DNA of 63,131 nt, filler included, from Reclinomonas americana ATCC 50394 (taxonomy: Eukaryota): assembly GCA_048213135.1 (NCBI GenBank). It is 5 parts of 3 records of this genome, joined end to end, with 100 filler letters (N's around TTAATTAATTAA, not from the genome) between each part and the next. Parts side by side here need not be neighbours in the genome. Positions count along the whole stretch, not along the records: positions 1 to 10,551 come from PS015103.1; positions 10,652 to 22,130 come from PS015104.1; positions 22,231 to 53,394 come from PS015104.1; positions 53,495 to 61,355 come from PS015104.1; 1 more part is not named here. One strand, 5' to 3'. The notes beneath the pieces are model-generated. The model made no database searches. It was not told the origin of the DNA and saw only the letters and a program-made list of their open reading frames with translations. Position 1 is the stretch's first letter. Each line of letters begins with the position of its first letter. The position numbers and the translations under genes were made by a program. Below are positions 751 through 60,200 of this stretch, piece after piece.

Positions 751-3700
751 ATGTGTACGCGTGCCCTTGAGATGAGCCGCAATCTTCTTGGTGCTGACCA
801 TCCGCAATCGCTGGACGTTGCTGCAAGTCTTGGGGAGGCACTATGCAAGATTGGTCGGGACGGGGAGGCCATTGATGTGTTACGCGACACGGTGCAGCGT
901 CAGAAACGGATGTTGCCAGAGAGTAGCACGGAGACAATGGTCACAATGACCTGCCTCGCCCAGGCTCTTCACAACACCGGCGACAGCAAGGCTGCAGTGG
1001 AGATTGGACGCGAGTTGCTTCTACGACGTCGCAAATTCTGCGGTGACGATGACAACAACACAGTCGAAAGCGCCTACCACCTAGGCGAGCATCTTCTTGC
1101 CGTCGGCGGCAAGCGCAATTTTGCGGAGGCCTTTAATTTGCTTACTGATACGCGCGAGCGGTGGACTCGGCTGCTTGGTTCTGACGCACGGAGCACACTT
1201 GCTGCGTCGTTCAGACTTGGGCACGCCCTGCGGCGACTCGGTCGACCTCAGGAAGCCGTTGAAGCGCAGTGTGATACACTGGAGCGGCTGAAACGGTTGC
1301 CTGTACCGGATAAGAGTCTCGAGGTGGCGGTTATGGTCGATCTTGCATACGGCTATGCGGAGTGCGAGAATTACGTAGCGGCAGTTCGAGTCGGTCGAGA
1401 ACTAATCCCTCTTGAACGACAGCAGCTTGGCGATGACAGCCCAGTCACGGTGAACAGTATTCGGACCTATGCGGCCAGTCTCGCGGCTGTTGGCGGGGTC
1501 GCGAACATCAAGGAAGCGGAGCGCCTAATGGTAGAAATCATGAGCAAGCGGGACCGATTGTCTGGTCCTGAATTTGGTGCAAAGGAAGACGATGAGAAGC
1601 TTATGTTTGTAATCCGTGTCGCACTTGAAGGAGTGCCGCGCGGTGAAGAAGAGGGGACAGAGACTAGCAAGAAGAAGCGGGACTCTTCTGCTGGTGAGTT
1701 TGTGCCTTGTCTCCTCTGATCACCGCCTTCTCTTACTCACTTTCTTCGTGTGCTTGTGGACGCAGCAGTGCCTGTCGACGCCACTCATTCGTCCTCTCGA
1801 TCATCGGTTTCGTTGCTGATCACGCAGGCCTCTCCTTCATGTGACGTGACCACTTAAACGGCATGCGTCCCCGCAGGCATCCGGAGCAACCTCCCCACCC
1901 GTCGTCGCCTCCTCTTCATCTCGCACACCAGCCGAGAAGGTTGACCCCGTCGGCCGGGCCGGAGGTGGTAAAGGACAAACTGTGGTCCAGCCTGATGCGC
2001 TGCAGCAAGATCTGGACGAACAGCGGCAGCGGGCAAGCGAATGGCAGGCGCGTGTGGAGCACCACGAACAAACCGCAGCTCAGTTGCGACAGGAAGTTGA
2101 GGCAGCGCAGCGTGGAAAGGAGGCATGGCGGCAGCGGACAAGCGAGTGGCAGGAGCGTGTGCGGCAGCAGGAGGAAACTGTGCAGCGGGTGCAACAGCAG
2201 ATGGCGGGACTGCAGCGACAACTGGACGAGCAGCAAGCACAGATGAGCGACTGGCAGCGGCGTGTGAAGCAGCAGGAAGCGACTATTGCTGAGCATGCCG
2301 CCTCGCTCCAACAGCACGAAACTGCGCGTACCGCGCTGCAGGAGGCGCTGGATCGTGTGGACGAACAGCGACAGCGCGAGCATGACCGAGCACAACGACT
2401 CGAGGCTGATTTGGCTGCCGTGCAGCGCGATCTCACCCACCGAGGTATGTGTGGCAGCAAGAGGGGAAGGAGGAAGAATGATGACTGCAGACTCACTTGT
2501 TTGATGATGATGTAGCGCCGTTGACTGCATTTTCTTGGGAACAAGTGGTGTCGATGAGCAACAATTTTGCGGAGCGACTCGGTGGCGATGGTGGACAGGG
2601 CAAGGTGTTTTGTGGGCAGTGGGCCGGACAGAGTGTGGCCATCAAGGTGTTTGACAGTGCGCTGCCGTGGTGCATTGAGTCGTTCTCCAATGAGGTGAGG
2701 GTGGTGGATGGGGGAAGGATGAGAGAAGGAAGTTATTTTCTTCTCATTCTCTTTCTGCTTGCATCTCAGTTGGAGAAGCTCAAGGCGGTGAGTGTGGCTG
2801 GCGTTGTACCGCTGATTGGATTTGCGGAGTCGGACGACGGCAAGCGATGTGTGGTGCTGGAGGCGATGAGGTGAGTGTGAAGAGAAGAGGGCGAGCAGAG
2901 ATGTAAGGGACGCAAGCGGGTTGAGTAAGACTTAATGAGAGAGCATGAACGTGGTTGCCAGCTCGTCTGTTGTAGATGCAGTTTTCCTGTCTTTCCGTCT
3001 GTCTTGATTGATGATCACCACCACGCCTCTTTGTCGTTCCCGAGAGAGGATGGGAGGTGTCATCTGTTCATGTGCACTCACTCCTTCGTGTTTCACAGTG
3101 AGCACAACTTGGAGCACCGACTGCTGCAGTGGGCGGAGCGTGGACTGCCGGCCATGTCGATTGAGGCACGAATGACGTGCATGCTGCGATGTGCCGAGGC
3201 TGTTGCTTCGCTGCACAAGTTGCGTGTCACATGTCTGTTGTTTCCTTCTTCATGGGTTTCGGGCTCACGTTGCTGATGATGCAGGCATGTGAGTGAGAGA
3301 TGTCATGCGTGTTGTCTGTGTGCGTTTGCTTCATTCTTCTCTTTATTGACTCACTCGTGCCTTTCTGTGCGCTTGTCTGGGTGCGCAGAATGGTACGTGT
3401 GTCTGTTCTGCGTCCTCTGCTCATTTTCTTCCATCCACTCACTTTCTCTCTCTCTTTTTTCTCAGTGATCCATCGCGACCTGAAGCCAGCCAACATTCTG
3501 TTCAACCACAGTGGAATGGCCTACATCGCGGACCTGGGAGTGGCACACTGGTTCCGCACCGAGGGGGTGAGTGACACTTTCCTGCCCTGTCACTCCCTTC
3601 CCCTTTCCTCCCCTCATCCCTTCCCTCTCCTTCTCCCTCTTCGTGCCACAGACGCACTTGTCTGTTCACTTTGCTGGCGACCCAAAGTACGCCGACCCCA

Positions 3701-5360: not shown

Positions 5361-6583
5361 NNNNNNNNNNNNNNNNNNNNNNNNNNNNNNNNNNNNNNNN
5401 NNNNNNNNNNNNNNNNNNNNNNNNNNNNNNNNNNNNNNNNNNNNNNNNNNNNNNNNNNNNNNNNNNNNNNNNNNNNNNNNNNNNNNNNNNNNNNNNNNNN
5501 NNNNNNNNNNNNNNNNNNNNNNNNNNNNNNNNNNNNNNNNNNNNNNNNNNNNNNNNNNNNNNNNNNNNNNNNNNNNNNNNNNNNNNNNNNNNNNNNNNNN
5601 NNNNNNNNNNNNNNNNNNNNNNNNNNNNNNNNNNNNNNNNNNNNNNNNNNNNNNNNNNNNNNNNNNNNNNNNNNNNNNNNNNNNNNNNNNNNNNNNNNNN
5701 NNNNNNNNNNNNNNNNNNNNNNNNNNNNNNNNNNNNNNNNNNNNNNNNNNNNNNNNNNNNNNNNNNNNNNNNNNNNNNNNNNNNNNNNNNNNNNNNNNNN
5801 NNNNNNNNNNNNNNNNNNNNNNNNNNNNNNNNNNNNNNNNNNNNNNNNNNNNNNNNNNNNNNNNNNNNNNNNNNNNNNNNNNNNNNNNNNNNNNNNNNNN
5901 NNNNNNNNNNNNNNNNNNNNNNNNNNNNNNNNNNNNNNNNNNNNNNNNNNNNNNNNNNNNNNNNNNNNNNNNNNNNNNNNNNNNNNNNNNNNNNNNNNNN
6001 NNNNNNNNNNNNNNNNNNNNNNNNNNNNNNNNNNNNNNNNNNNNNNNNNNNNNNNNNNNNNNNNNNNNNNNNNNNNNNNNNNNNNNNNNNNNNNNNNNNN
6101 NNNNNNNNNNNNNNNCTTCTTCTTCTTTCTTCTTTCCTTCTTTCTTTAATCTGTCTCTCTCTCTCTTCCCCCTCTCTGCTCTTCCCTCCCTTCCCCTCCA
6201 CTTCCCCTCCACTTCCCCTCCTCTTCCCCTCCACTCCCCCTCGTCCTTCCTCTTTGATTGCTCTCCACTGACTCTCTCGAGTTGTCTTCCTATCCTCGTC
6301 CAGTCGACCTCGTCGTTCCACCAGCGGCTCCTCATCAGCAACGCAAGCCGCTGCCGCCGCCGCTGCTGCTGCAGAGGTACCCACGTGCTACACAGCCGCG
6401 CAAGTGATCGCCAAGGTCGCGCAGTGGTACAACTTGGAGGACTCTGCGGTTGCGTTTTGCACTCATCTCTCTCCCACACAACGCTCACTCTCTCATTTTG
6501 CTGACCTCTCCCATTCGCAGAGTGACGATTTCGTGGCCACGGCCTCTCCTTTCGCTCTGCCGGCCACCTTTGATAAAGACTGA
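4989..6583 (+). CDS. Eaf7/MRGBP-like (NuA4 subunit-like) small protein, 3 visible exons
   Basis: Exons 4989-5254, 6304-6448 and 6521-6583 splice in frame: MGDT..SWSLLEEIALLECMENFEP...TAAQVIAKVAQWYNLEDSA-SDDFVATASPFALPATFDKD*. This resembles the W-x-x-x-E-x-x-L..P and Y-D/N-L...F-x-L-P pattern of the Eaf7 family. Confidence 0.55.
5273..5360 (+). repeat. (GA)n microsatellite in intron, running into gap
   Basis: Near-perfect GA dinucleotide run. Confidence 0.95.
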
Positions 6584-6615: not shown

Positions 6616-9600
6616 TCACTTGCGATTGCTGCTGTACGAGGCCGGTCCACGGGCCGGCCACGACGACGATGATTGAGCTGCTGCGGTGGCGCTGGTCGTC
6701 GTGGTGGTCGTGCTGCCACTGGAACCCATCTCCGTCCACTCGGCGAGCTCGGCGACAGAGACTCCTGATCCTAGTGGATCCATACCGGTGAGGCGAATGG
6801 TGTCGGGATCGTCGTCGGTGTCCACTGCACGCACGCCAGAGATGGCCAGTCGAGCCGATGTCGGTTTCTTGCCGGCCGATGGTGTGGACGGTGACACGGG
6901 GGAAGCAGCAGCAGCAGCAGCAGGCGACAATGGTGACTCTGCTTCCCTTGCTGGTGGTGGTGGTGGTGTTGGCGGTGGCGCTGGAGAAGCGGGCGGTGTG
7001 TCGACAACCGTCACAGTGGCGGCAGTTGTCGTCGTCGTCGTCGCCGTCGTTGTTGCAGCAGAAGCATCTGTCGCCGAGCCCGCCGCCGCTGTCTTCACCG
7101 CCACCGACGCCGCCGCCGCTGCCGTCGTCACGTGCATTGGGCGCGGCACCTTTTCGATCGGCGTGGTCTCACCAAGCGGAATGTAGTCCTTGTCCTGTAT
7201 CGCGCGCTATCGATGAACAAGGGCCCTCATTTGCCACACGCGCACGCGCACACGCAACTTCCAGATGAGAGACCAAGAACAGACCCACATCCTCCGAGCG
7301 CCAGTACCCAGTGTGCGCACCACGCAGCGACGACACGTACTCCGACACCGTCTGCAGAGTGCTCTCTTGCAGCACAAAATCGATGCGCGGGTATTCGGCT
7401 TTCGGCGCGCTGCCCGACGCTGCAGCGGCTGGCGCGGCGGCAGAGGCTGTGGTCGAACCGTCGCCCTCGGCCTCCATCGTCGACATTTGTGCCGCCACCT
7501 CGGTTGCCAGCTCCAGCATCTCCAACTCGCCACCACCAACATTGCCTCCTCCGGCTGCCGAGGCAGCAGCAGCCGTAGTTGCGGTCGTTGTCGTCGACGA
7601 CTGGGTCGCAGCGGCGGCGGCGGTCTCCTCAGCCGCCACTGCAGCCGCCACGGCCTCGGCTGTCAACACGTCCTCGTCGCGGCCGCGAGAAAAGAACTGC
7701 ACACGAGGGGTCAGACAAATTGCGCCTATTCCGGGCTTCCTCCGCATCAATACGCACCCTTTTGACGGCCACTGTCGCACGTGCGATTCGCTCCCGAAAG
7801 TTGCGGTGCCATCGCTTGCCGGTCGAGTGTCGCCAGAAACGCATCTCCACTGGCGGTCGCGCCTCTGCTCCACATCCCGGGAAGAACAGCGGCTCCAGCC
7901 GATAGGCCACGGCATCGTACGGGTGGAAAATGTTGAAGAAACCACGGTGCACCGGCGGCCACATGGGCGGCGTGTCGAGCGTGGACGCCATCTCCCCGCG
8001 ACCGGCCAGGAAGATGCCGAGCGGGGAGCCGAGCGCAAAAAAGTTGTCGGCCTGAAAATCGAGCGTGGGGAAGCCCGGCTGACCTTGCTTCGTCAGAATG
8101 TCGTATGCAATCACGGAGCCGAGGGAGTGGCCGACAATGGAGATGGCGCCCTTGTAGTTGTACTTGCGCTGGAGATCGCGATAGATTTCGTTCATCTTGG
8201 CCGTCACCGTCTCCACAATCACCGACGAGTAGTGCGGCGACAAGTAGAACATGACGTCGACGAGGGCCTTGTTGATGAGGTGGCGCAACTTGGCGACCTT
8301 TGGCAGCGTAATGCCCTCCACAATGTCGTCGACGCCCTCCTCCTTGTGAATCGCCGTCGACCACTCGACGCAAAACACGGCAATCTGGCTCTTTTCGTGA
8401 AACACTTGCTCCTGCGCCGTCATGAGGGTGGTGCGGAACATGTCGGCTGCAGGGGGCGGAAGGGGGGAAGGGAGATGAGAAGGAGCGAGAGGGGGAGAAC
8501 GGGGAGGAGAAGGAATGCGAAGGAGAGAAGGGGATGAGAAGGAACGCGAAGGGAAAAGGGGATGAGAAGGGAGAAGGGGAAGAGAAGGAGCGAGAGGGGG
8601 AGAAGGGGATGAGAAGGAATGCATAGGGAAGGGGATGAGAAGGTGTGCGAAGGAAGAAACAGGATGAGAAGGAGGAAGTAGATGCGTAAGGGGAAACATG
8701 GGGTCTCAGTGACTCTGGGTAGTCTCACGACAAAGGTGAGAGGTGTCTCCCTTGCGAGAGTCCCCACAACAGAGAATCACGGACTTGTAGAGACATTGCA
8801 AAAGAGAAGGGCATTGATGACAGTCCCCACAACAGATGAGATTCCAGTCTCTGTGCGTGCACTCTAGCATTCACACCAACGGAAGCGTGTTCATCATTGA
8901 AAAGAGTGAGAGAAAGGAAAAGCGAGGCAAGTGTGCACCGTTTTGCAAGGAGACGGACAGCAGAGAAAGAATCCGCCGTTGAATGAGCATCGTGTCCGTA
9001 TGAGAACTCGACACTCCGTAACTGACGAAAAAAAGAAAGAAACAAGAGCTGCGTCTCTGTGTGCGTCTCTGTAATTACCCCACTTCCCCCCCGTCGCCAC
9101 GCAACAAATCTCCTGCGCAGTCTTGAACCTCCCACCCTCCTCCCGACTCCCAATGCCCAACACCACAATAATCGCATGCGCTCTCCCCGTCATCACCGGA
9201 TCGCGTCGCCCACTCGCATGCACCGCCGGCACAGGCACCGCTGCCGCCTTGACCTTCTCCTTCTCCTTCTCCCTCGCCTGCTGCCTATGCGCGCGCCTGC
9301 GCAGCCTCCGCCTCTGCCTCCGCTCGCCCACCTCCACCAAGTCATCCTCCGCGCTGTTGTCACTGCTGCCTCCGCCCGCCTCCTGATCACTCGCATCGTC
9401 GTCGCTCTCGTGATCGCTCACCTCACTGCTCACAGTCGAGGTGGCAGTCAGAGTCGGCGATCGCTGCTCTCCCTCATTGTGATCGTTCTTGTCTGCGGCG
9501 GCGGCTGCGGCTGCTGCCTGAGGAGACATGATGCCTGAGCGCAAGGAACCGGTGGATCCGCCTCCACTGGACGATGACATGGGCATCATTGGTCGCTCGT

Positions 9601-12012: not shown

Positions 12013-15000
12013 AAATCAAGGAAGAAGTCATTCAGCAGATTCTCGACATGCCCAACCTGGTGTGCCGACGATGTTTTGTGAAGACGGCCAAGATGAACGT
12101 ATGTGACGCACGCCACAATGCCTCCCTGCGACCATGAACTCACCTCTCTTCCGTTGTCGCGTAGATCTTCTACACCAGCATCAAAACCAAGCCCATTGAG
12201 GTCGACATTGACTTTGTCGAGGTGATTCTGGAGGAACCGGACGAGTTGTCGGCCGTGCCGCACATCCTGCCCTTGTTTCGTCACCCCTCCTTTGTTGGCC
12301 TCGTCCGTGCGCAACTTCTCCCCACTTATCTTACGCCTCTCCAGAGAAAACCTGGATGCGAAACGCGGCATTGCGGACAAGGTGCTGGATGGCATGACGG
12401 TGCGCATTGGTGAGATCCGCCTGCGCATCGCCACACTCGGCGATTACCACCAGACGGGCGAGCGACCGTGGCAGCTGGTCATGTCGCTCTTCAACGTCTC
12501 CGTCGTGTGCACCAACGCACAGTGGCAAGTGGGCAATCTGCAGACGAATCGCCGGCCCTACAAGAAGAAGCCGGATGTGCTCGTGCACAAGGTGGTGACA
12601 TGCCCGTCCACGGATTTGTGGATGGTCGGCCACCGTGGAGAGTTGTACCCGATCATTGAGGGCATGCCGTTTACCATGCGAGTTGCGTTGAGAGAGAGGG
12701 AGAGAGAATGCGCACAAGTGTGGTAGTTTTGTCACTTCTTCATCGCTCTTCTGATTGGCGTGTTGCCTCTGTCTTCTTCCCTTGGACGTGTCCGTGTATT
12801 GTGTGATACATCCCCGTACAACTCGTCATTCCTGAGCTGGCAATTCCCTCCCTCTTTGACTTTTCCCATCTCTCGCCTTCCTCCTGTATCTAAGCCTTCC
12901 TTTCCCTACCACAGATGGTCTCCAAAGTCCGCGTGCGTGGCTCCGTCCTGATGTACAGTGCCAAGGACCTCTACATCAACGACCTGCGCTTGACGCTGGA
13001 TCGCACGCACTACATGGCGCTGGTCAACGTGTTTGCCGGCATTGGTAAGGCCATGTCGCGCTCGCTGAAAGAGGATGTGGAGGTGTCGCTGCGCGCCGAG
13101 CAAATGGAGAAAGAGTCGGCGGAGAAGCGGCAAAAGGGCAAGCAAAACGTGCGCATTGCGGAGGGCGTCGGCATGCGTCCGACGTTGTGGAAGCGCTTCA
13201 AGACCGTCTTCCATGAGACCAAGACGCGGCAGGTGAGCTGAAGAGAGAGGGAGAAAAAGGCTGGGTGCATGACCGTGAAATTCTCATCCGTTCTCTCTTC
13301 CTCGCCGATGCAGCGCCGCATGGAGGAGGAGCTGGAGCGCGCACAAGCTGAGCATGACTCACGCACGGCGGCCACGCTGGCCAAGCGCACCGATTTGCGC
13401 ACTCCATCCTCATCGTCCAGCTCCCGTTCGAGTCTCGACAGTGAGTTGGACGACGATGATGACGATGGCGGCACCGAGTATCACGTCGACGAGATCCCCG
13501 CGGTGGAGGGCTTCGACAAGTCCGCCGACATTACCGACATTGGCACCGATGGCAGCAAGCTCACCATGAATGGTTTCGCGCTGCATCTGGGAACGGTGGA
13601 GTTGACACTGGTCGACGAGAACGTGAAGCAGGACGCGCTGTCGGCGATGCTCACCGGCATTCACTTTATCACGCGCGCCTCTGCCGCCAAGAGCATGGTG
13701 GCGCTGGTGCAGGAGTTGGTGCCGGAGAGATTCGGCGCGCAGAGTATTATGGAGGTGAGGTGGTGGGGACAGGAGGGGGATGGAGGGGCAGAGAGGAGAG
13801 GAAGGGAGAGGGAGAGAGAGAGATGGTGAGAGGGAGAGAGGGAGAGGGACAGAGAATGAAGGGGAGAAAGATGAGAAGAGAGCAAACAGAGAGAGAGAGA
13901 GAAAGGACTTTGTGCATTGGCACACTTTCATTGCATGGTGAGATGCACTCAACGTGGGGGAAAGCGATTCGCCTTCTGTCGTTTCTCTCGCATTGATGCA
14001 ATCTTCAGTCGGTGTGCAAACTTTGAGCTTGCACCAGCGTCCTGTCTCAATCAGGTCACGATCTACCCCGAAAGAGAAGTATCCGAGCACACAGCGACAT
14101 ATCACGCACTCACACAACAGATATCACATTGTACTCATGCTTGGTGTCTCTCTCAGTCGCTCTCCGCTCTTGTATTCTCTCTGGCTCTTGCACTTTCTCT
14201 CCTCTCCCTCTTCCCACTGACAGCTTCTTCCTCTTCGCCTCAATCACCTCCCCCTTCCCCCACTCCCTCCCCCCTCCACGCAGCTCCGCATCGCCAACGT
14301 CCTCGTCACCGACATGCGCACCGAGTGCCCCGAAGCACTCCGCACCGTCCTCCACTCCATCAACGTGCCTGTCAATGACGGCACCGATGATTCGTCGATG
14401 GTGGACACGGAGCATCCTCTCGACTGGGTGCGACTACGCAAAAACAGCTTCGTGCCGTGGAAGAGGGCCTCAGACTCCGCGCCGCAAACAAAGCAACAGG
14501 CGCGTGACGAGAGATTATGGGCGACGCTGGAGGCCAAGTTGGTGAGTTTGAAGTGCGGGCGGCGGTTGCGAGTGACATTGCAATCTTTCTCTTTCACTCG
14601 CTGACGTGCCTTGTCTGTCGAATGTTGTGTTTCTCATGACTGTCTTTGCATGTGTTTGTGCATGTCCCTGTCCCTCTCTCTGTCCTCCCCCTCTTTCTTT
14701 CCGTCTCTCTGTTTGCATGCCCACGCTCTTTGCCTTTCCCTCATGCCTCCATTTCCGTTCTATCGCGCTCTCTTTTCCGTTTCCCCGTCTCTCTTGTTCT
14801 CTCTCCTCCTCCTCCTCCTCTGTCCCTCCCATATCTTCCCATGTTCCCTCGTTTGCCCGCTTCTTTGTCCCATTGTTTTCTCTTTCTTTCTCGTCCTCTG
14901 TCCCTGTATTTTCCTTCTCCTCATCCCTCTCCCATTCCCTTTTCCCTCGCAGGCCCCGCTCGAGCTCGTCGTCAACCTCGACGCCGTCAAACTCCTCGTC

Positions 15001-18000
15001 AGTTTCTTCGCCTCACCCCCCGGCAATCCGTCGTCGCAAGAGTCGGCCGAGGCCACTGGCGAGCAGCGCGAGGGCGTCAATGGCGGCCTGGACAAGATTT
15101 TCTCGTGCGTCCACCCCCCTGGCATATCGCCTTTTTTCTTTTATTATTGCTGACACTCCCCCCACACAGTGCACTCGTAAACGAGGAGCTGCATGTGCAT
15201 TTGGATGCGCGCGGCTTCCTGATCCGCGTTCCCATGGTGGTGCCGCGAAACAGCTCGTCGTCGACGCCAACATCGGCTGCCGCCGGCAGCTCGCTGACCG
15301 TCGCCACCCCCGGCGCACCCACCACTGCCGCAGCGTCGCCGTCGAGTCCTTCGGTTGGCCGCCGAGAAGTGTGGACGCATGTGCATTTCGGGCGCTTCTT
15401 TGTGGCCAGCGATTACGACATGTTCTCGGCCGATCCGCTCAGTCCCGAACTGTTTCCGCACCTCACCAAGACCGACGCACCCGGCGGCTACGATGATTTC
15501 CTGTGTCGTAACGCCGTGGCGCGTGCGTCGTTGTCGCACCGCGCCGTGGTGATTCTGCGCGAGACCTACATTGACATTATCACCACGGAGAAGCGCTCGC
15601 GCGGTGGTATCAATGGCATTGGTGTGACGGTGGACACCAAGGAGTCGAGGTACTCGGTGCTGGAGCCGTTTTCGTTAAAGGTCGAGGCGCAGCTGCGTGA
15701 TTTGTCTGAGCTGGACCCGCTGATTGTGCCTGGGTTGGAGGCCATGGTTCGTTTCTGTCGCACTTTGTCTCCCTTCCTTGAGAATCTTCCCCTCATCTCT
15801 CTCTCTCTCTCCGCGCAGATCCACTGCTCGCAACTGCGTATCCACCTCATGAAAGAGGACTGCTCCATGTTCCTGCAAACCGTCAGCCACGCGCTGCACG
15901 AAATCGACCGTGTGATGACCCGCTACACACCCGACAGTCTTCCCGGCTCGTTGGCCACGTTGCGTCTTGTTTTTCGAGAGAGATATATATGTAGTTGCTG
16001 ACCTCACTCCTTCTCCTCACTCGACAGACCTGGTGTGAGTGGCTCGGGCACCGGCTACGTGGACTCGCCATCGCATCAAGAATCGCTCGGCTCCTTCCGC
16101 GACATGGACACCGAAGATCCCATGCTCATGTCGGTGGCCGAGCAAGGCCTCCAGATGACGGCGTGCGTTTCATTAGCGCTCAGCGACTTCCTCGTGCTGA
16201 TGGGTCGCAAGAAGGAGATTGCGTATCGCTTGCAAGTGCGCAACTTGGAAGCCAGTTTTGAGGTTTGTACCGGCGATGGGACTTTGTTTTTCTGTCGGTA
16301 TCATCATTTGACTGCTTGGCGTCGTCCAACAGCACCACGCCAACAAGGTGGTCGGCAAGGTGCATTTGGGATCGTTCTCGGCCAGCGACGTTCGTGAGCC
16401 GGTCGACTCAGTGCACGCGCTGCTGGTGTCGCACTCTACCACTGGTCAGTGTTCTTCGTTTCTGATATGTCGTTTGCATGTCGTCTTTCGACTCATTGAT
16501 GTCCTTTGCCCAAAGACCCGAATGTCCCCCTGCTGCAAATCCGCGCCGTCATTCCCAAGGCGGTGGATGCCGACGGTGGCATTGGTCAGCTCGATGGTGT
16601 GTGATGATGTTTTTGAATCACTGATTCCATACCCACCCATTTTTCCTCTCGCAGAGGCCGGAGAGCTGCGTGTTCGTCTCTCGTCGCTCCGCTTCGCATT
16701 GGTGGCGCGCAAGTTTGCGGAAATCCGAGTGCTGGCCATGGATGCGTGAGTACCAATGTGGAATGAGAGAAGAGGCTGTTTTCTGTCACCTCATTCTCCG
16801 CCCGATTGCTCTCGACTGTTCGTCTCCTTTTCGCTCCATGGCTCTCTTTTTCCTCTCACTTGTCCCCTCTCCTTCCACTTTCGTCTCACTCTCCCNNNNN
16901 NNNNNNNNNNNNNNNNNNNNNNNNNNNNNNNNNNNNNNNNNNNNNNNNNNNNNNNNNNNNNNNNNNNNNNNNNNNNNNNNNNNNNNNNNNNNNNNNNNNN
17001 NNNNNNNNNNNNNNNNNNNNNNNNNNNNNNNNNNNNNNNNNNNNNNNNNNNNNNNNNNNNNNNNNNNNNNNNNNNNNNNNNNNNNNNNNNNNNNNNNNNN
17101 NNNNNNNNNNNNNNNNNNNNNNNNNNNNNNNNNNNNNNNNNNNNNNNNNNNNNNNNNNNNNNNNNNNNNNNNNNNNNNNNNNNNNNNNNNNNNNNNNNNN
17201 NNNNNNNNNNNNNNNNNNNNNNNNNNNNNNNNNNNNNNNNNNNNNNNNNNNNNNNNNNNNNNNNNNNNNNNNNNNNNNNNNNNNNNNNNNNNNNNNNNNN
17301 NNNNNNNNNNNNNNNNNNNNNNNNNNNNNNNNNNNNNNNNNNNNNNNNNNNNNNNNNNNNNNNNNNNNNNNNNNNNNNNNNNNNNNNNNNNNNNNNNNNN
17401 NNNNNNNNNNNNNNNNNNNNNNNNNNNNNNNNNNNNNNNNNNNNNNNNNNNNNNNNNNNNNNNNNNNNNNNNNNNNNNNNNNNNNNNNNNNNNNNNNNNN
17501 NNNNNNNNNNNNNNNNNNNNNNNNNNNNNNNNNTTCTCCCTCTTATTTATCCAGCTTGGATGGCTGGAAGAAGCCGCCGCCGCCAACCGCCCGCCGCAGT
17601 GGCCTGCACCAGCGGAGATCGTCAAACCAGGATTTCGGCGAGTTGACGTCGACGGGCGAATCCGAGCTGACCATGGGCTCCGGCTCTGGCCACTCTCTCT
17701 CCCAAGCTCGCTCGGCGGCCTCGGTGGCTGAGAGCCTGACGCGCGGCTCGTCGGCGCCAAAGTCCGGCGCCTCGCTGTTCCCGCTCAGCAGTGTCAACGT
17801 GGACATTGTGGCGCGCGAGACCGAGGTGGTGATCCTGAGCAAGGTCGGCACGCGCAACTCCATTCCCATTACTGTGGGTGCCGTCAAGTTTTGGCGCGAG
17901 GTCGACATTTTCAACAAGCAGACCATCAACATTTACGCGCAAGATGTGGCCGTCACCACCGCGCTGTGGGAGCATGATCAGTTCGTGGCGCAGTACCTGG

Positions 18001-21000: not shown

Positions 21001-22130
21001 NNNNNNNNNNNNNNNNNNNNNNNNNNNNNNNNNNNNNNNNNNNNNNNNNNNNNNNNNNNNNNNNNNNNNNNNNNNNNNNNNNNNNNNNNNNNNNNNNNNN
21101 NNNNNNNNNNNNNNNNNNNNNNNNNNNNNNNNNNNNNNNNNNNNNNNNNNNNTGACCTGACGTTCCTCATGGAGCTCAACATCGGGCGCATCTTCTTCTC
21201 CAACGAGAACACGAGCGCCTACGACCCCTTCATCAAGCGTTCCGATTTGGAGGTGTGCGGTGTGGAGTTCTCGCTCGAGACCATTGACTCGTCGTCCGAG
21301 GCCATTCGCGAGACCATCGAAGTGGTGCAGCCGGTGAATGTGAAAGTGTGGGCCGTGGCGAAGCCGGCCTCGGTCCTCGGCTACCCGCACTTGCACGTCA
21401 GTGCCGACATTGACCGCATCCGAGGTACCTGGGTTGTGTTGGAAGTTCCGCTTTCTCTCGCTAGTCGCCTCTTCTCACTTTGCCATTCGACAAGGTGTGC
21501 TCTCCATTCAAGTCTACGAGCGCCTCACCCACTCGATCGGCGGCTACATCGACGCGCTGTCGATGGACCAGTCGAAGGCGCCGCAGGAGAAGAAGTCAAA
21601 GAGCGAAATGTCACTCGATGTGATGGTGCACTTTATCGACTTTTCTCTGTGGAGCGATTACGTGGCCGAGCTGGCGCTGTTCTACCTGCACACCAAAAAC
21701 ACGCATGCGTTTGCCAGTATTGGACCATGTTGCGTGGACGAGAAGCGAGAGAGACGAGAGAGAGAGAGAAGCATGCAAGAGTATGCAAGACAGTGGCAAG
21801 AGGCTGCGAGGTGCTCAGAAGAGGAGAGAGAGACTGTTGCGTGGACAAGAAGCGAGAGTGACGAGGGAGAGAGAGAAGAGTATGCGTGTGCTTCCCCCCC
21901 CTTTTCGTCACTCTCTCACTCCCACACTCTTCTCCCCCCGTTGCGCAGCCGGCATCAGCATCTCGGTGGACTCGAGCCTGGAGGTGCTGCTCAACAACCT
22001 CAACTTCAACATCCCGGAGCCGTTTATCGAGTCCTTCAATGTGGCGTTGGAGGTGAAGAAGATTTCGGCCGCCGATCGCTCTCATCGCGCGCACGGTATC
22101 GTCATCACGGACACGGAGTCGGAGAGTCTA
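12013..22130 (+). CDS. Bridge-like lipid transfer protein, UHRF1BP1/BLTP3 (chorein-N, VPS13-superfamily)-like; partial at both ends
   Basis: N-terminal exons give EEVIQQILDMPNL..IFYTSIKTKPIEVDIDFVEV..GIADKVLDGMTVRIGEIRLRI..SLFNVSVVCTNAQWQVGNL..VLVHKVVT, which matches the remembered UHRF1BP1L N-terminus. Long beta-rich segments follow across more than 20 GT-AG introns. Confidence 0.75.
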
Positions 22131-41634: not shown

Positions 41635-42663
41635 CTACCTCTTCATCGACCCCTCCGACGGCTCCATGAAGCGCGACTGCAAGTACGCGCAGATCAAGCG
41701 CATTGAGCCGATTCGCGGCAAGGATCGCGACTTCAACCTCGACCATCGCTCCGTCGACAAGCACGTGATTAGCGATTTTCGACCGTACGTCCTCTGTCGC
41801 TGCTACCTGGTGACCAATTACGGGCAGCCGCAGCCGTTCAATGTGTCGAAACTCAATAAGAATGGATCAGTTGCGTGGCGTGTTTTGGAGAGGGAGTGAA
41901 GTAGTGGGAGCCTGAAATCCTCACCCGTCCCGTTGCGTGCAGCAAACCGAGGTCATTCTGCGCGTGTATCCTGGCCACTTGGAAGAGGTGGAGAGCATGA
42001 CGCAGCGGCGCGTGCGCTGCGACGAGCTGATGGCGCTCCGTGGCTATGCGGTGTGCTCCGACAACCCGCAGCTGCTGATGATTGCCATGCCAGGTGGCCG
42101 CTATCGGCTGTACAGCTGCCCGGATCGTGATGGACTGGCGCGGTGAGTTTTGGAGTTTTTTTTGATGAACACTGCGGCACACGATTACGGACACCAGAGT
42201 GGGAACAGACAGACGTAGTGTGCGGTGTTATTCTGCGTTCGTGTGCTTGTGTTCTCAGTGTCCTTCCTCCGCATACCCCCCTTTCTGTCTCGCACGCGCT
42301 CTTGTGTCGTAATCTTGCACCGATCTTTCTTGCCTCTGACTCACTTGCCTAGTTGTCTCTCCATCTCTCTCCCTCTCTTTCTATCCCTTCTCTCTCTCCC
42401 ACTCTCTCTCTCTCTCTCTCTCTCTCGNNNNNNNNNNNNNNNNNNNNNNNNNNNNNNNNNNNNNNNNNNNNNNNNNNNNNNNNNNNNNNNNNNNNNNNNN
42501 NNNNNNNNNNNNNNNNNNNNNNNNNNNNNNNNNNNNNNNNNNNNNNNNNNNNNNNNNNNNNNNNNNNNNNNNNNNNNNNNNNNNNNNNNNNNNNNNNNNN
42601 NNNNNNNNNNNNNNNNNNNNNNNNNNNNNNCGCAATCTTGCCACTGCCTATTGTTCCCTCTTA

Positions 42664-45483: not shown

Positions 45484-48400
45484 TCTGTTTGTTTTCGTTC
45501 TCTCTCACTCTCTCTGTTTCTGTCTCTCTCTCTGTTCTGTCTCTCTCTCTCTGTGTCCCTCTCTCTCTCTCTCGCTCACTCACTCACACCACTCTCAAAA
45601 CACACACGCTGCATGTCGCTGAAGACTGCCTGCTTATTCTTGCACTTTTCCTTCGAGAGCGTCATCGTCCAATCGTTCTTTTTCCTTGAAACGCCTCCCT
45701 CAGTGCTCTCGCTTGCGCTTTGCCTCTATTACCCGTCCCCCAGTTTCTCCTCCTCCTGCCTCCTCTGTTGGTCTACTCTTTGTATCTCATTATCCATTTC
45801 TGCACATCCTTCTTCTCTCCTCGTCCCTTGCATCATTCCTTCGTTTCCCCTTATCGTCGTCATCCAATCTTTCGTTCTCTTTCAACTCCCTGTTCACCCT
45901 TTCCCTTCAATCTTTTGTTCTCCACTTGTCATCTCCCCATATCCTTATCTTTGTCGCTTCCCCCCTCATCTCCCCTTCTCCTTCTCCTTTCCCTCCCCTC
46001 CCCCCTCATTCCCTTTACCTTCCCCTTTCCTTCCATCTTGTGTTCTCCTCATATATCCGACTTCTCATCCTCTTCCCTTCCCCTTTTGCTCCCCTCCCTT
46101 CCGTCGTTCCCTTTACCTTCGCCTTTCCTTCCTCTCCTTCCCGTCACTCCCCCCTCTCCCCCCTCACTCCCCCCTTCTCCCCCCTCACTCCCCCCTTCTC
46201 CCCCCTCCCTTCCCCTTCCGCTTCCCTTTCCCTCCCCTTCCCCTCCCTTCTCCTTCCCTTCTCCTTCCCATTCCCCTCACCTCCCCCTTTACCCTTGTCG
46301 CAGCGCCCCAAGCCTCTGGCGCAAACGCGGCCCGCGCATGGGCGACGCCGGTCCGCCACTCCCCCTCGAGCTCAAGTGGCAGAATATGTTCGAGCACGTG
46401 AGTGACGACCACCAGCGTGGCGAAGTGATTTGGAATGACCAGACGCGCGCCGAGTTTCGACACGCGTTGCTCACCGAGTACGCCGCGTTCCGCGAAGACC
46501 TGGTTTGCGCTCCCCGCATGATGTTTAGCTCCTTTGCGGTGCTCCTTCTCACTCCCCGCTCCCCGGCAGGCCAAATTCCCGGGCTCGGTGGTGGAGTGGA
46601 ACTCGGACGAATTCACGGTGCGCTACGAGAGTCTGGAGAACGAGCTGCGAGTCGGCGGTTTCTACCTCGGCAACTACCTGCGCGAGGTGGAACGCATGGG
46701 CTTTGGCAAGGAGAGTGAGGTCGACGACCCCATGGCCTTCCTGGACGACCTGCATCACCGCCTGCTGTTTGACACTCGCCCGGAGACGCAAATGCTCTGC
46801 CTGAAGACCATGGTCATTGTGTACACGATGTACCGGCAGAAAGTCGGCGTGTACCCCTTTATTAATCACCTGTGCCAGGCACTGGTCAAGTTGCGTCACC
46901 CCCTGCCACTCACACTTTTTTCTTGCTTGGTGTGCTGATGGGGGAAAGTACACTGTACAGCTGGGAGTACTTGCCGGCCAAGATCCAGCTGCTTACCTTC
47001 CTGCAGCAGTCGTTCTCCAGCGAGCAGAACGTGAAGCTGTTTGTCGACAATGGCGGTGTCGATTTTTGCATCTCGGTGCTGCCGCTGGTGCACTCGCTGC
47101 CGCCACCATCGCCCGACGGCGTGGTCTCTGAACGTTGCGGCCTCGTCCGACGCTGTCACAGTCTCTTTGGGTGGTTGCTCACCGTTGTGTCGCGCGCGTG
47201 TGATTGTTTGTCGCAGACACGGAGTTGGTGATTCTGGTGCTCCGTTTGCTCATTCGCGCCGCCTCGTTCCACCCGAGCCTCGACGAGGACGGCAATGTGC
47301 TGGTGCCGCTGCCGCGTGTCAAGCGACTCCTCAGCTCGGAACGCCTGCTGCCACACATTGCGCAGTTGCTGTTCACCACCAACGACACGGTGCTGTCGCT
47401 GGTATCGCAGCTGCTGGAGACACTGATTGAGCACAATCACGAAATTGGTATGAGCGAGAGCCGCGCGCGCTGTGCCTGATCTCTCTCTCACCCGCTGACG
47501 CATTTCTCTCTCTCTCTCTCTCACGTGACAGGGCATCGTCTGTACCGCACCGGCATCTTCTTCTTCCCGTTCCTGCACGACGGCAAGCGATTCGCCGCCG
47601 TCGCACCGATCCTCTACGCAGCCCACATGGTGCAGAAGCGTGTGCCGCCGGTGGCCCTGGAAGAGATCATGCCGTACAATCTGGTGCGCCTGCTGGAGGA
47701 GAGTGGAGCGGCGACGTTTGTGGCCAGTTTCCAGTCGGACATGGAGAGTCCGTCGCTCATCTGGAACCAGGTGAGAGCGCGGGCGCTTGTTGTTTCATGC
47801 TGAGAAAACAGCATGATCTGACATTGTCTCTCTTTCCTCTCTCACGTCGCAGACCATGCGACAGTCGTTGGTGGCGCACATGCGCGCGCACTTGGCGCCC
47901 TTTTATCACCAGCTGTCGGCGGCTCCCGGCACCAGCGTCTACAGCCTGTCGACCAGCTTCACGCGCATGGAATACGGCCATCTCACGCAGGAGCCGCGCT
48001 GCGGCAAGTACTTTTTGCGGTATCTGTTGGACCAGAGCCGCTGGCCCGCCGGCTTCCAGATCGCCCCCGTGTCCGAATTCCTGGCCGAGGCCACGGATCT
48101 GATGCAGCAGCTCATTGTGATTCACGCTCAAAGCAATGTCGACATTTTCATGCTGATCGACGCCATTAACATTGTGTGGCCGCGGTACGCCGAAGATGCC
48201 GCTGTGCGCAACTTTGCGTACTTTGCGCCGTTGATTCCGTGCATGGCGGTGAGTGAAGGATGGAGGAAGAGGGAGGTGGAGAGGGAGAAGGGATTGGGGC
48301 CTCATCTTTCTCCTCTTCTATTTCCCCTTTTCTCTCCCGCTCTTCTCTAACACTTTATCCTTGTTTGGCTGTCTCGATTCCTCATCATTCTTCTCTCTCT

Positions 48401-51400: not shown

Positions 51401-52982
51401 NNNNNNNNNNNNNNNNNNNNNNNNNNNNNNNNNNNNNNNNNNNNNNNNNNNNNNNNNNNNNNNNNNNNNNNNNNNNNNNNNNNNNNNNNNNNNNNNNNNN
51501 NNNNNNNNNNNNNNNNNNNNNNNNNNNNNNNNNNNNNNNNNNNNNNNNNNNNNNNNNNNNNNNNNNNNNNNNNNNNNNNNNNNNNNNNNNNNNNNNNNNN
51601 NNNNNNNNNNNNNNNNNNNNNNNNNNNNNNNNNNNNNNNNNNNNNNNNNNNNNNNNNNNNNNNNNNNNNNNNNNNNNNNNNNNNNNNNNNNNNNNNNNNN
51701 NNNNNNNNNNNNNNNNNNNNNNNNNNNNNNNNNNNNNNNNNNNNNNNNNNNNNNNNNNNNNNNNNNNNNNNNNNNNNNNNNNNNNNNNNNNNNNNNNNNN
51801 NNNNNNNNNNNNNNNNNNNNNNNNNNNNNNNNNNNNNNNNNNNNNNNNNNNNNNNNNNNNNNNNNNNNNNNNNNGTGAGGGGGGAAGGAAAAGAGAGTAA
51901 GGAGAAGGGGAAATGACGAGACGAAAGAGAGAGCATCATAGAGAAGAGAGAGATTGAGAGAGAAAGAACATGAGGTGAGTGCAAGCATGAGAGATAAATA
52001 GAAAATGTGTGTATGTCTGTGTTAACACGTGCATGACTGAAGTGTTTGTTCTTGTACTGTACGTATGCCTGAGTCTTTTCGTGTCAGCGCATGTGTGGTG
52101 GCGTGTTTGTACTGCATGTACGCGCGCGTCTCTCGCGTGTGCATTGGTGGTTGTAAGTTTGTGGGTCGCTACACAAATGTCTTGCTGTGGGGAGTTCTTG
52201 TCTGTTGAGAAGCTGTCTGTTAGACGTCTCCCAGTGCACGTACGCAGTTGAGAAAGAGCAATGGTAAACACACTGCGTTTCAAGAGGCGTGCCTACTTGA
52301 TGTAACACTGTGTGCTCACCATATCCCGCTTCCCTCTCACAGTGGTATCAGCGAGCGATTGCGGTTATCACTGATTTTGACTGCCACGCACTTTTTGTGG
52401 AGCCCCATTGGCCGTCAGTGCATCGATCGCAATCCGTGCTGTGCTTACTTGTTGCGAGTTTCGTCCTTGGTGGTGCTGTTCGATTGGTGAACAGGAACTC
52501 ATGTTCTCTCTCGATACACTTCCGCATAGGCGTTGGGGCAAATGGGCGATCATCTGGACCAGGGTCTGCTGGCATTGGCGCGGTTGTTGCGACATTCGCC
52601 GCAGAATCTGCTGCGTGCAGTTGTTGCGTTGGTTGTGAAGGCTCAATTACGCTTCCGGTTGCTTGTGTGCTCACGAAGTGCTCGCAGAGCGACGGCGTCA
52701 TTCCCTTCTGTCTCGGTGTTATGGAGAGCGCACGACCACCGCAAGTCAAGGACCGCGCGGCGCACGTCATCAAGATGTTGGTCGCTGATGGCCGGTGAGT
52801 GTGCAACTGCACACGTTCCTCATGCGACTGTGTGTCGCTGACTGCGCCTTTGCCACAGGACATCGGAGGGTGCTCGCAGTGCGGTGTCGACGAGTGGCAT
52901 TTGGTTGCAGTACACGCAGGCACCGGTACAGCCGCAGCCTCTTGACGATTCCACCATTCCGAATGCGCCACCGCAGGCACAG
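41635..52982 (+). CDS. RME-8/DNAJC13-like protein lacking J and GYF domains; partial ends
   Basis: Four IWN-type repeats (EVIWNDQTR ~46425, SLIWNQTMR ~47755, AVWNANTR ~49280, VIWTDSLR ~51040) plus SLDEDGNVLVPLPRVKRLLS..LPHIAQLL, LYRTGIFFF, ELRVGGFYL and ELKVAGVFVRQFNKDP, all typical of RME-8. About 30 in-phase exons. Confidence 0.85.
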
Positions 52983-53450: not shown

Positions 53451-53541
53451 NNNNNNNNNNNNNNNNNNNNNNNNNNNNNNNNNNNNNNNNNNNNAGAGAG
53501 CGACAGAGAGAGAGAGAGAGAGAGCGGGAGAGACACTCAAC

Positions 53542-54358: not shown

Positions 54359-54408
<50 letters not shown>

Positions 54409-54787: not shown

Positions 54788-54858
<71 letters not shown>

Positions 54859-55619: not shown

Positions 55620-55688
55620 GTAACAACTCGCACAACAAAAAAGAAACGGTTAAAACTCCAATTCTGGCGCGAAAAATACAAACTTCAT

Positions 55689-57240: not shown

Positions 57241-60200
57241 ATGAGCGACGCAGCAGCAGCGAGCGCAAGTGACGAGCGAGATGGCCAGATGGCCACCTCA
57301 GGTTCAACCTCACACAAACACACACACTCGCACACACGCACGCACTCTGTCTCTCTCTCTGTCAGTTCTCGTTCTCTCACTCTCTCACACACTCACGCAC
57401 ACGCGCACGCCTGACGATTCGCTCACACTCACACTCACACACACAGCGTCACCGACTTCATCCTCGACAGGCTCCTCGGGAGTGCCTCCGCCTCCCGCGC
57501 AATCGGCATCGGCGGCGGGTGCGGCGAGCACTGTACCAGCGACGGTTGTTGTCGCGGCGCAGTCGATTCATCATCCTCGTTGTCATCATCATCATCGTCG
57601 CAATTGGCAGTCGGGGGAGCAGAGGTGACGGGGGAGAAGGCATCTGCTGGTGGTGGGACAGGAGTGTCCTCTACGGCGGCAGCAGCAGCAGCTGCGGGAA
57701 GCGGTGCGAGTGGAGTCGCGACGGGCGNNNNNNNNNNNNNNNNNNNNNNNNNNNNNNNNNNNNNNNNNNNNNNNNNNNNNNNNNNNNNNNNNNNNNNNNN
57801 NNNNNNNNNNNNNNNNNNNNNNNNNNNNNNNNNNNNNNNNNNNNNNNNNNNNNNNNNNNNNNNNNNNNNNNNNNNNNNNNNNNNNNNNNNNNNNNNNNNN
57901 NNNNNNNNNNNNNNNNNNNNNNNNNNNNNNNNNNNNNNNNNNNNNNNNNNNNNNNNNNNNNNNNNNNNNNNNNNNNNNNNNNNNNNNNNNNNNNNNNNNN
58001 NNNNNNNNNNNNNNNNNNNNNNNNNNNNNNNNNNNNNNNNNNNNNNNNNNNNNNNNNNNNNNNNNNNNNNAAGTTGGGTGGAATGAGAGATTGAGGAGAG
58101 GGAGAGAGAGAGAGAAGGGGAAGGGTAAGGGAGAGCCTCGTGTGGCGCACAGGCTCTGACAGAGGAAGACGCTCTCCATCTCCGCTAGTTTCTCGTGTTG
58201 TGAGCGAGAAAAAACTCATGGGGACGCACGAAAACGCTCTCCATCTCCTCTCGATTCTCGCGCACAGAGAGAGAGAGAGAGAGAGAAAAGAGAGGGTGTA
58301 AACAGGAGTTCATGGGGCGCTCGTACGCTTCTGTAACGTCGCTCTCAGTCTCCGCTCACTTCTCGCGCTGAGAGAGAGAGGCAGAGAATGGTAGCACAAG
58401 AAAGTGACATACTGCTGCTCACCTTTGCATTGAGAAGGAGCAGTGAGTGGGGGAGAGAGAGGTGGAGAATTGGTCACCGTTCAGGCTCTTGCCTCTCTCC
58501 ACCCTTGCTCGTTTGTTGTGTCGAGAGACAGTGGACGAGTGGGGAGGCAGAGAATAGCACCTCTCAGGCTCTTGTCCAGGCGGAGAAGGCCACTTTGCCG
58601 CTCCACCCGCGGTCGCTTGTTGCACAGGGTGGCAGAGGAGGGGAGAAGATAGAGACGCAGAATAGGAGCTCCATTGCGCATTGCAGTGCTTCTCCAGGAG
58701 AAGGTGGTCCATCACTCTTTACCATCGCGCTCGCAGAGAAAGACGGACTGAGAACAATAGTTCCTCAGCAGATATTCTCCATCGCGGCTCTCGGCGCTCG
58801 TTTCTGTGAGGGCCAACACACGTGGTCTCTCTTCTGTTTCTCGTTCCATGTTCTCTCTCTCGCTCAGCATGTTGCACACAGCTCAGCATGTTGCACACAA
58901 TGCTCATATATCATGACACCGCATTTTGACTTGGTGGACAGTGAGATGTGCTCAACTCACCTTCCTTCTCCCTTCGCGTCTAAGCATGTCCTTCTCCTTG
59001 ATTCTGTCATTCTACGACGATTTCTCTTGCTCGAGTCGTCTCATCGCTCTCCCGCACAGTTGGTCCCGCTGTCGACATTCCTCGAAAGGTTCCAGTATCT
59101 GGAGAAGGGTGGCCGTGAGAAATCCCCAGTGGTGTGCGTGGAGGGTGCGTCGGAGATCACTTGTCCACGAATTGCATGTTCGATATTGCATTTGACTGTA
59201 GACCTGTGCGCAGGCATTGTCGTTCGCAAGCGGTCAAATAATCGTTGCGCGTTGGTTGTGTTTCCTCCCTTGCATGGTTCCTCGTGTAGCTGACGAGTGG
59301 GTTGGTGTGTGAAACGCAGCGCGATTGCACTTTGTGGACATTGGAGGAGATGGTGCGTGATGACTGTACTATTTTTGTCTCGCTGATTCTCGTGCTCACT
59401 TCGATGTGCGCGGGCGCAGGAGTCGAGAAGTTCCAGCTGATGTGCGATCAAAGGTGGGAAAGAAGAGAGAGAAAGGGGAGAGAGGGGAAGGGTGGAAAAG
59501 GAGTGGGAAAAGGAGTGGGAAAATCCTGTTATCTCTGCGTTTGTGTTTCTGTCTCACTTTGCTTTCTCTCTCTCGAATTCCGACGTCCTTCTCGTTAGTG
59601 CATGTGCTATTTTCTCGATTAGCGAAAGGAATGAGGAGAAGGGGAAAGATAGATGAGGAGCAGTGCAGTGGAAAAGCTGATAGACGAGGGAGAATGCGAC
59701 ATGGGGATAGGAGGGAATGGAGGGCTCACTCTCCAGTGAACTGTCGTCTCTCCCGTGCTCCCCCTCTTTCCCCCTCTTTNNNNNNNNNNNNNNNNNNNNC
59801 CCTTCCCCTCCTCCCTTCCCCCCTTTCCCCCCCTTCCCCCCCTTTCCCCCCCTTCCCCCTCTTTCCCCCTCTATCCCCCTCTCTTACCCCCTCCGCTCAC
59901 CTCCCCTTGTCCATGCGCAGAGAATTCGACGGCCAGCTGGCCGACTTTGTGCAGTCGCTGCAAGTTGGAGATCACCTGCGAGTCGAGGGCGTGGCAGGTA
60001 CAGAGACCCCCCTTCTCCCATTACCCCCTCTCTCCCTCCTTCTCTCCTTCTCAATCTTCTCCCCCAACGACAGCCCGCACCATGGCCGGCGAGGTCTCCC
60101 TCGTACCCCACCGCGTCCTCCACCATCGACCGGCACCGGCCGACGCCAACGGCATCGGACACCTCGTGCAACAAAAGTCGCATCCGAACTACTCGCTGCC

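Follow-up and report, generated by a model that had tools for sequence, protein, structure and literature searches.

Which signal marks the start of an intron in Reclinomonas americana ATCC 50394? The question is raised by a stretch of 63,131 nucleotides (nt) of its genome (assembly GCA_048213135.1; hereafter the window), whose initial annotation described, beside ordinary 5' splice sites (donors) with G at intron position +5, a second class built from the same words with an extra T, so that the G sits at +6 (GTTNNGT; hereafter the GTT class). Our analysis suggests that about one intron in five starts with a GTTGCGT-type donor rather than with GTnnGT. In the gene model described below, on which the class counts depend and which includes some false ordinary donors, the GTT class supplies 16 of 89 modelled donors, in keeping with the annotated routine use of donors with G at +6 rather than +5. 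It also accounts for 13 of 60 complete introns and for 10 of 35 high-confidence introns; GTTGCGT, with 9 of those 35, is the commonest single donor word. A possible 14th complete intron of the class begins with GTTTGGT at 25506, which has G also at +5 and is ambiguous.

The window holds 55.8 kb of real sequence and 7,306 N, the latter lying in many gaps besides the spacers (N44-TTAATTAATTAA-N44, at 10552-10651, 22131-22230, 53395-53494, and 61356-61455) that separate its five scaffold pieces. Because these are joined pieces and not one locus, genes and introns cannot be traced across the spacers. Splice junctions were placed over the 55.8 kb by a purpose-written Viterbi gene model with the DNA sequence as its only input. 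The model learns codon usage iteratively from the window, has three intron phases and free ends at N gaps, requires introns of at least 40 nt, and permits only GT..AG introns. Its first version used GT and AG only; the second added a matrix for the acceptor, derived from the model's own predictions, with the donor still only GT (the blind model); the final model scored GTNNGT and GTTNNGT equally; and an ordinary-only model penalised the GTT-class word by 8 bits. Introns were called high-confidence when both flanking exons scored at least 15 bits. The median length of modelled introns overall is 75 nt; they have CAG as the acceptor and a branch-like motif, CTCAY/CTGAY, about 10 to 30 nt before it. 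At ordinary donors, +3 and +4 vary (GTGAG, GTTTG, GTGCG, GTGTG, GTATG) with G+5 fixed, and GTAAGT is rare.

Several lines of evidence suggest that GTTGCGT sites serve as genuine donors, with the cut ahead of the first G, and that the introns they open are ordinary short ones of the GT-AG kind. An excess of the word over chance was confirmed: 29 copies occur on both strands, compared with 12.6 +/- 3.7 in sequences simulated with an order-3 Markov model (200 runs, none above 22 copies) and 16.5 expected from a maximal-order Markov estimate. Relative to the modelled genes, 20 copies are sense, 3 are antisense, and 6 are unassignable. Of the sense copies, 14 of 20 act as donors in the model, compared with 10 of 25 for GTGAGT. 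In the model, removing the intron restores the reading frame. Where a copy lay no more than 45 nt from a predicted donor and both flanking exons scored at least 8 bits, 11 of 12 GTTGCGT copies were in phase, compared with 13 of 17 GTG[AC]GT copies and 97 of 263 GT words lacking G+5. The blind model, which was given only GT, hit 9 of the 27 annotated donors to the exact base, and several of its misses were in-phase neighbors sharing the same acceptor.

Scoring GTT-N-notG-GT like GTNNGT improved the model by 94.3 bits and gave 21 donors, whereas decoys in which +3 was A, C, or G gained only 6.7, 22.5, and 15.8 bits (3, 6, and 8 donors, respectively). Under the 8-bit penalty, 5 of the 13 complete introns kept the class word, 3 moved to non-consensus in-phase GTs, and 5 moved to a word with G+5. 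Unspliced read-through meets an in-frame stop in 10 of the 13, and the length of 9 is not a multiple of 3. Homology backs one junction. Homologues of the DDHD lipase encoded on the minus strand (88 proteins, all at most 45% identical, used to check this junction) align to 7259/7262, adjoining the donor at 7258, which excludes the in-phase alternative at 7288 as well as that at 7273. The Pfam DDHD match in open reading frame (ORF) 7172-8092 ends at ORF residue 276, profile position 256 of 258. Pfam matches that might show continuity across the junctions of the RME-8 gene were weak or absent; a weak RME-8_N match begins at about 41940, consistent with the acceptor of intron 41870..41942.

The same data can be read as misplaced junctions, in which splicing would take place at nearby GTs or at a GC donor three bases in (GTT/GCGT, with the frame kept; a slash marks the exon-intron boundary throughout) and GTTGCGT would be an exon-end or enhancer word. 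The junctions are indeed those placed by the gene model, an in-phase alternative with G+5 exists for 5 of the 13 introns, a 3-nt shift is compatible with both the frame and the DDHD alignment, and 7 of the 27 annotated sites found no support in the model. We nevertheless consider this reading improbable, as the remaining 8 introns have no such alternative, homology excludes it in one of the other five, and neither the frame test nor the 20-to-3 sense bias, with 14 of 20 sense copies at modelled exon ends, favors it. In addition, a constant exonic GTT in each of the three phases (6, 2, and 5 of 13) would constrain codons oddly, and a GTT/GC donor would fit no known GC-AG consensus.

On the annotated strand, each of the 27 listed sites starts with GTT and has G at +6. 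The GTTNNGT pattern itself fits 24 of them; the other three read GTTGCGC (20270 and 59244) or GTTGCGG (47134). The observation stands overall. The final model uses 17 of the 27; 2 more are favored when permitted, 1 ties with an overlapping ordinary donor, and 7 are unsupported or outside the reach of the model (Table 1). Two further donors of the class, at 21729 and 52623, were absent from the annotated list. The class had been placed on four scaffold pieces; support extends to three, and nothing on piece 53495-61355 could be verified. Use of 55522 as a donor is costly in the model (-15.6 bits), and Pfam searches of ORFs around the unsupported sites returned weak or unrelated matches only.

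Apart from the donor, introns of the GTT class look like ordinary U2-type GT-AG introns in the model. Median length is 75 nt in both groups. A YTNAY branch-like motif is found in 12 of 13 class introns and 38 of 44 ordinary introns, over a similar range of distances to the acceptor (about 10 to 30 nt), and CAG acceptors end 12 of 13 and 37 of 44, respectively. All 13 complete class introns run from GT to AG, which shows compatibility only, as the model permits nothing else.

U12-type introns have the donor RTATCCTT and a rigid branch site near the acceptor. Like them, the GTT class is a minority with a rigid, information-rich donor beside loose major-type donors. Membership in the U12 type was rejected: GTTGCGT is unlike RTATCCTT, and the introns have no common extended branch word. 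A divergent class resembling that of the minor spliceosome, with its own U11/U6atac-type RNAs and rigid donor word, would account for the high information content of the donor and for a sizeable minority of introns, and minor-type introns can expand to thousands, as in Physarum. We regard it as very improbable, since the donor word is unrelated to RTATCCTT and branch motifs, branch-acceptor distances, and CAG acceptors are as in ordinary introns, with no distinct or extended branch consensus.

A common origin of the introns, for instance as introner elements, was likewise rejected. In the portion of PMC3879977 concerned with Micromonas and other introners, many introns share an identical donor word, as here, but introners are similar along their length, whereas an all-against-all blastn comparison of the 60 introns (13 of the class and 47 others) gave donor-anchored matches of only 10 to 11 nt within the class. 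Other matches were short or of low complexity.

The class consists of essentially one word and does not contain every ordinary donor plus T. Of the 21 class donors used when GTT-N-notG-GT is scored like GTNNGT, 17 are GTTGCGT, 2 are GTTTCGT, and 2 are GTTGAGT. The annotated picture of ordinary words with an added T needs correcting: the intron side does equal GTGCGT plus T, but a near-single word (17/21) takes the place of the range of words proposed. Among the 16 modelled donors of the class, T+3 is found in 16, G+4 in 15, C+5 in 15, G+6 in 16, and T+7 in 16, invariance at +3, +6, and +7 being fixed by the definition of the class.

Comparison of the exon side with 70 ordinary donors suggests how this word relates to the ordinary signal. 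G at -1 falls from 46/70 in ordinary donors to 3/16 in the GTT class (p=0.0014), and A at -1 rises from 3/70 to 7/16 (p=0.0002). The frequency of A at -1 in the class equals that of A at -2 in ordinary donors (31/70), as a one-base shift predicts, and G at +8 in the class (7/16) matches G at +7 in ordinary donors (30/70). Positions +3 to +7 of the class (T, G in 15/16, C, G, T) likewise correspond to +2 to +6 of ordinary donors (T, G in 41/70, n, G, T in 49/70). Aligned in this way, the class consensus A/GTTGCGTG and the ordinary consensus AG/GTGnGTG lie one base apart. These data suggest that the GTT-class donor is the usual signal moved over by a single base.

The initial annotation had left the choice between a bulged and a shifted register. 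In the bulged case, standard U1 would pair with GU-(U)-GCGU, one U of +2/+3 being flipped out and G+1 and -1 keeping their partners. The intron side is indeed identical to GTGCGT plus one T, and bulges at +2/+3 with an extra U after GU and the G moved to +6 have been validated in human, where the section of PMC4856993 on such sites counts 68 predicted and 54 curated among 201,541 sites. A bulged U predicts that -1G, paired in the human sites, is kept, yet it is depleted in the GTT class and -1A rises, which favors the shifted register. The bulge also predicts GTTGAGT to be at least as frequent as GTTGCGT, whereas GTTGAGT makes up just 2 of 21, and folding against the standard U1 end predicts little stability for it even when -1 is G (-4.2 kcal/mol, in another register). 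The bulged register is thus quite improbable, and the shifted one is the part of the earlier proposal that we retain.

Our best explanation, to which we give a probability of about 0.45, is that one reader RNA pairs with GTT-class donors one base further downstream, in a shifted register. The RNA that reads ordinary donors (AG/GTGnGTG) would pair one base downstream at GTT sites, where A/GTTGCGTG equals AG/GTGCGTG with one G changed to T. The intron's first G would take the position of the exon's last G, the U at +2 would be left unpaired, and the cut site would be set by later steps of the spliceosome on the sole available GU. The reader is probably U1. Because a helix broken at +2 would tolerate one word only, its pairing partner may carry ...ACGCA..., in which case the U1 5' end of this lineage would differ from the standard ACUUAC. 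The rigidity of the word points to a pairing partner unlike the textbook U1 end.

Folding with simple nearest-neighbor energies, partly on invented partners, shows what partner would explain the word, not that such a partner exists. The standard U1 5' end was taken as AUACUUACCUG, as printed in PMC4856993 (also written ACUUACCU). With this end, ordinary donors averaged -6.4 kcal/mol and 400 random GT sites -2.3 kcal/mol. A hypothetical ...ACGCAC... end gave -7.7 kcal/mol for ordinary donors, -7.5 kcal/mol for the GTT class in the shifted register, and -4.9 kcal/mol for random GT; with the class consensus it reached -8.3 kcal/mol, and only with this end was the shifted register predicted to be more stable than the normal one. 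A hypothetical ...ACGCAAC... end bound the GTT class only (-11.0 kcal/mol; ordinary, -4.6; random, -4.2). Rfam scans of the window, at the gathering threshold and at E<=1, detected no small nuclear RNA (snRNA). Variant U1 or U6 snRNAs, the other option named in the initial annotation, may still deserve weight given the near-invariant C+5 of the class and the weak binding predicted between GUUGCGU and a standard U1 end.

A number of points weigh against pairing by one reader in a shifted register. To our knowledge, the U1 5' end is almost universally conserved. The standard end gives only -1.4 kcal/mol with the class consensus, in a best fold that is not the shifted register, and is not predicted to bind the 16 class sites more strongly than random GT (-1.8 versus -2.3 kcal/mol on average); in telling ordinary donors from random GT, it also outperforms the hypothetical ACGCAC end. 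An altered U1 predicts enrichment of GTGCGT among ordinary donors, where GC at +3/+4 is present but not dominant (10/70, versus 20/70 for GA). C+5 is near-fixed in the class (15/16) and found in only 14/70 at the matching ordinary position (p=5e-8), and therefore class donors are not simply shifted ordinary donors; GTTGAGT should be common if ordinary words were merely shifted or bulged. Finally, the exon-side comparison is a small sample of 16 class donors, and all junctions derive from one gene model of 55.8 kb.

This lineage may have a further reader of 5' splice sites, though we place this on the unlikely side: U1 itself could have acquired a ...ACGCA... end, or an additional U1-like snRNA could match GUUGCGU by complementarity. 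If such a reader exists, its introns would form a separate group within the major type, comprising at least one intron in five, cut one base from where the ordinary consensus would place the cut. The stricter version, in which a variant U1-like snRNA (...ACGCAAC...) dedicated to the class reads it in the normal register and standard U1 reads ordinary donors, we judge unlikely. It fits the near invariance of +3 to +7 (15 to 16 of 16, with +3, +6, and +7 so by definition) beside ordinary donors loose at +3 and +4, and it fits the energies: the complementary end separates the class from random GT (-11.0 versus -4.2 kcal/mol) where the standard end fails to, and standard U1 keeps the ordinary donors (-6.4 versus -2.3). 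On the other hand, it would leave to coincidence that -1A and +8G agree in frequency with -2A and +7G of ordinary donors, and the two classes are mixed in the same genes, with identical branch and acceptor signals. A similar idea was raised for Ostreococcus, whose atypical donor consensus is GTGCGTG: the part of Irimia and Roy (2008; PMC2483917) that treats these donors asks whether altered snRNAs, or a second spliceosome, could play a part.

The donors of Mamiellophyceae offer a close comparison with the shifted word. Micromonas uses AG/GTGCGT, according to the donor description in Verhelst et al. (2013; PMC3879977), and these algae share the GCGTG core of the GTT class, AG/GTGCGTG and A/GTTGCGTG being one base apart. 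Unlike their donors, which stand in the normal register with G+5 as the main consensus of intron-poor genomes, the word here sits one base out of that register and occurs beside loose GTnnGT donors in genes rich in introns.

In well-studied spliceosomes, no donor base other than GU matters more than G+5, and pairing out of register is seldom seen. A shifted U1 register at atypical human 5' splice sites was reportedly described by Roca and Krainer in 2009. The relevant part of Tan et al. (2016; PMC4856993) describes the +1 register at rare atypical human sites, such as ACA/GUCAAGUAUA, and puts all validated non-canonical registers together at about 1.5% of 201,541 donor sites. The GTT class resembles these sites in having G+6/U+7 in place of +5/+6, an exon that ends in A rather than G, and an intron G1 that replaces the exon's last G; cleavage in the human sites is still at GU, as we propose here. 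It differs in frequency (16/89) and in being one fixed word, with a C+5 that is mismatched to standard U1 and no predicted stability. A shifted register is mentioned merely as a possibility in the portion of a tunicate paper (PMC13326754) that concerns donors. Among the papers listed by a literature search, which did not extend to supplements that could hold donor logos, none described a lineage in which GTTGCGT or shifted-register donors are frequent.

Two questions could be studied naturally in a genome whose commonest donor word has no G at +5: how the cut site is fixed when U1 binds out of register, and whether the almost universal U1 5' end can change or be duplicated. Gene finders with a single donor matrix would be expected to misplace about 1 in 5 exon boundaries here.

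Table 1. Genes, introns of the GTT class, and other annotated donor sites in the window (bits, gene-model scores, upstream exon first; annotation, standing of sites listed in the initial annotation)
Feature	Position	Strand	Support	Annotation
DDHD lipase gene	piece 1	-	Pfam	
Kinase/RING gene			Pfam	
Very large coiled-coil gene, MAP65-like end	23516-31185	+	Pfam	
RME-8 (DNAJC13) gene, many short introns	41159-52800	+	Pfam	
Candidate intron, GTTGCGT, 72 nt	6449..6520	+	final model; exons only 6.3 and 3.3 bits	used
Intron, GTTGCGT at 7258 (gaa/GTTGCGTG), 64 nt, DDHD gene	7195..7258	-	in phase with blind model	used
Intron, GTTGCGT at 9105 (ttt/GTTGCGTG), 659 nt, CAG acceptor, DDHD gene	8447..9105	-	final model; exons 26 and 82 bits	used
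Intron, GTTTCGT, 70 nt	12275..12344	+	final model; exons 21 and 38 bits	used
Intron, GTTGCGT (cga/), 233 nt	12682..12914	+	exact in blind model; survives penalty; read-through stop +42 nt	used
Intron, GTTGCGT (cac/), 69 nt	15959..16027	+	exact in blind model; weak upstream exon 4.2 bits, downstream 16.7	used
Ambiguous GTTGCGT overlapping ordinary GTGGGT at 20048	20052..20058	+	forcing costs 0.3 bits; acceptor lost in N gap	tie
Candidate intron, GTTGCGC, 70 nt	20270..20339	+	+1.9 bits given class score; compatible, not independent support	favored when permitted
Intron, GTTGCGT (tga/), 73 nt	20549..20621	+	exact in blind model; upstream exon 26 bits, downstream exon cut by N gap	used
Intron, GTTGCGT (cat/), 220 nt	21729..21948	+	in phase; final model; exons 29 and 28 bits	not listed
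Intron, GTTGCGT (gag/), 81 nt, large coiled-coil gene	26168..26248	+	exact in blind model; survives penalty; read-through stop +40 nt	used
Intron, GTTGCGT (aga/), 74 nt	27006..27079	+	exact in blind model; survives penalty; read-through stop +32 nt	used
Intron, GTTGCGT (ctt/), 75 nt	27205..27279	+	in phase, 24 nt from blind donor, acceptor unchanged	used
Intron, GTTGCGT (act/), 192 nt	27977..28168	+	exact in blind model	used
Intron, GTTGCGT (caa/), 78 nt	29522..29599	+	in phase; exons 177 and 141 bits	used
Intron, GTTGAGT (gag/), 66 nt	37606..37671	+	exact in blind model; weak upstream exon 4.3 bits, downstream 18.7	used
Intron, GTTGCGT (tca/), 73 nt, RME-8 gene	41870..41942	+	in phase, acceptor unchanged; alternatives without G+5	used
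Intron, GTTGCGT (tgg/), 71 nt, RME-8 gene	44213..44283	+	exact in blind model; survives penalty; read-through stop +9 nt	used
Intron, GTTGCGT (caa/), 59 nt, AAG acceptor, RME-8 gene	46890..46948	+	exact in blind model; survives penalty; read-through stop +46 nt	used
Candidate intron, GTTGCGG, 83 nt, CAG acceptor	47134..47216	+	+4.5 bits when permitted	favored when permitted
Candidate intron, GTTTCGT, 72 nt	52458..52529	+	final model; weak exons -1.9 and 7.1 bits	used
Candidate intron, GTTGCGT, 104 nt	52623..52726	+	final model; weak exons 7.1 and 3.0 bits	not listed
Seven annotated donor sites	1807, 3219, 50719, 59244, 53541, 55068, 55522			unsupported or outside model's reach

The ordinary-only model moves the donor of intron 8447..9105 to a GTGGGC 108 nt upstream, takes GTGCGC at 12307 for the intron at 12275 (leaving an intron of 40 nt), and shifts the donor at 27977 to GTTTGT at 28016. 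At 21729 the sole in-phase alternative listed is a non-consensus GTATTG, and at 27205 there is no in-phase candidate donor with G+5. The donor choice at 29522 is ambiguous, with an in-phase GTGTGA 15 nt downstream. At the candidate 47134, the free model preferred a donor at 47145 (GTCCGA) and an acceptor at 47224 (GAG).

In two class introns (41870-41942 and 21729-21948) the donor word recurs just before the acceptor (..CCGTTGCGTGCAG/ and ..CCGTTGCGCAG/), and a near-copy of the donor's first 20 bases lies at 21836 in the latter. Tandem Repeats Finder detected no 107-nt or other long tandem repeat inside intron 21729-21948. Two further introns on the plus strand have donors that fit neither class: 28637-28703 and 21425-21494 begin with GTGAAAAT and GTACCTGG, without G at +5 and +6, and both are well supported, with flanking exons of 114/177 and 40/29 bits, respectively.

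Four genes were recognisable by Pfam, encoding a DDHD lipase, a kinase/RING protein, a large coiled-coil protein, and RME-8. Third-codon-position G+C is about 60 to 82% in coding segments versus about 50% overall. GTTGCGT introns number 5 among about 15 in the coiled-coil gene, which has a MAP65/ASE1-like stretch near its 3' end and whose language-model features resemble centrosomal coiled-coil proteins only. The source organism belongs to a poorly sampled lineage. Against 1.84 billion representative proteins, the N-terminal RME-8 ORF returned five matches, the best being a 193-amino-acid unnamed fragment at 66% identity, and a homologue search with two RME-8 ORFs that asked for longer targets found none. 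Searches for relatives elsewhere gave no match among PDB sequences, 15 pattern stretches but none from a relative in a metagenome scan, and coiled-coil look-alikes only in the ESM Atlas.

On piece 4, where the codon model finds little coding signal and genes may differ in composition or be mis-modelled, a PAN/apple domain ORF lies at 55692-55919 on the minus strand (E=1.9e-6), and weak NHL/arylesterase-like matches occur at 53496-54215 on the same strand. Throughout, the window is very rich in microsatellites of the (CT)n/(GA)n and (GT)n types, for example, at 10660-10700 and 45400-45690. They fill many introns and gap edges, and CTCTCTC alone occurs 460 times over both strands.

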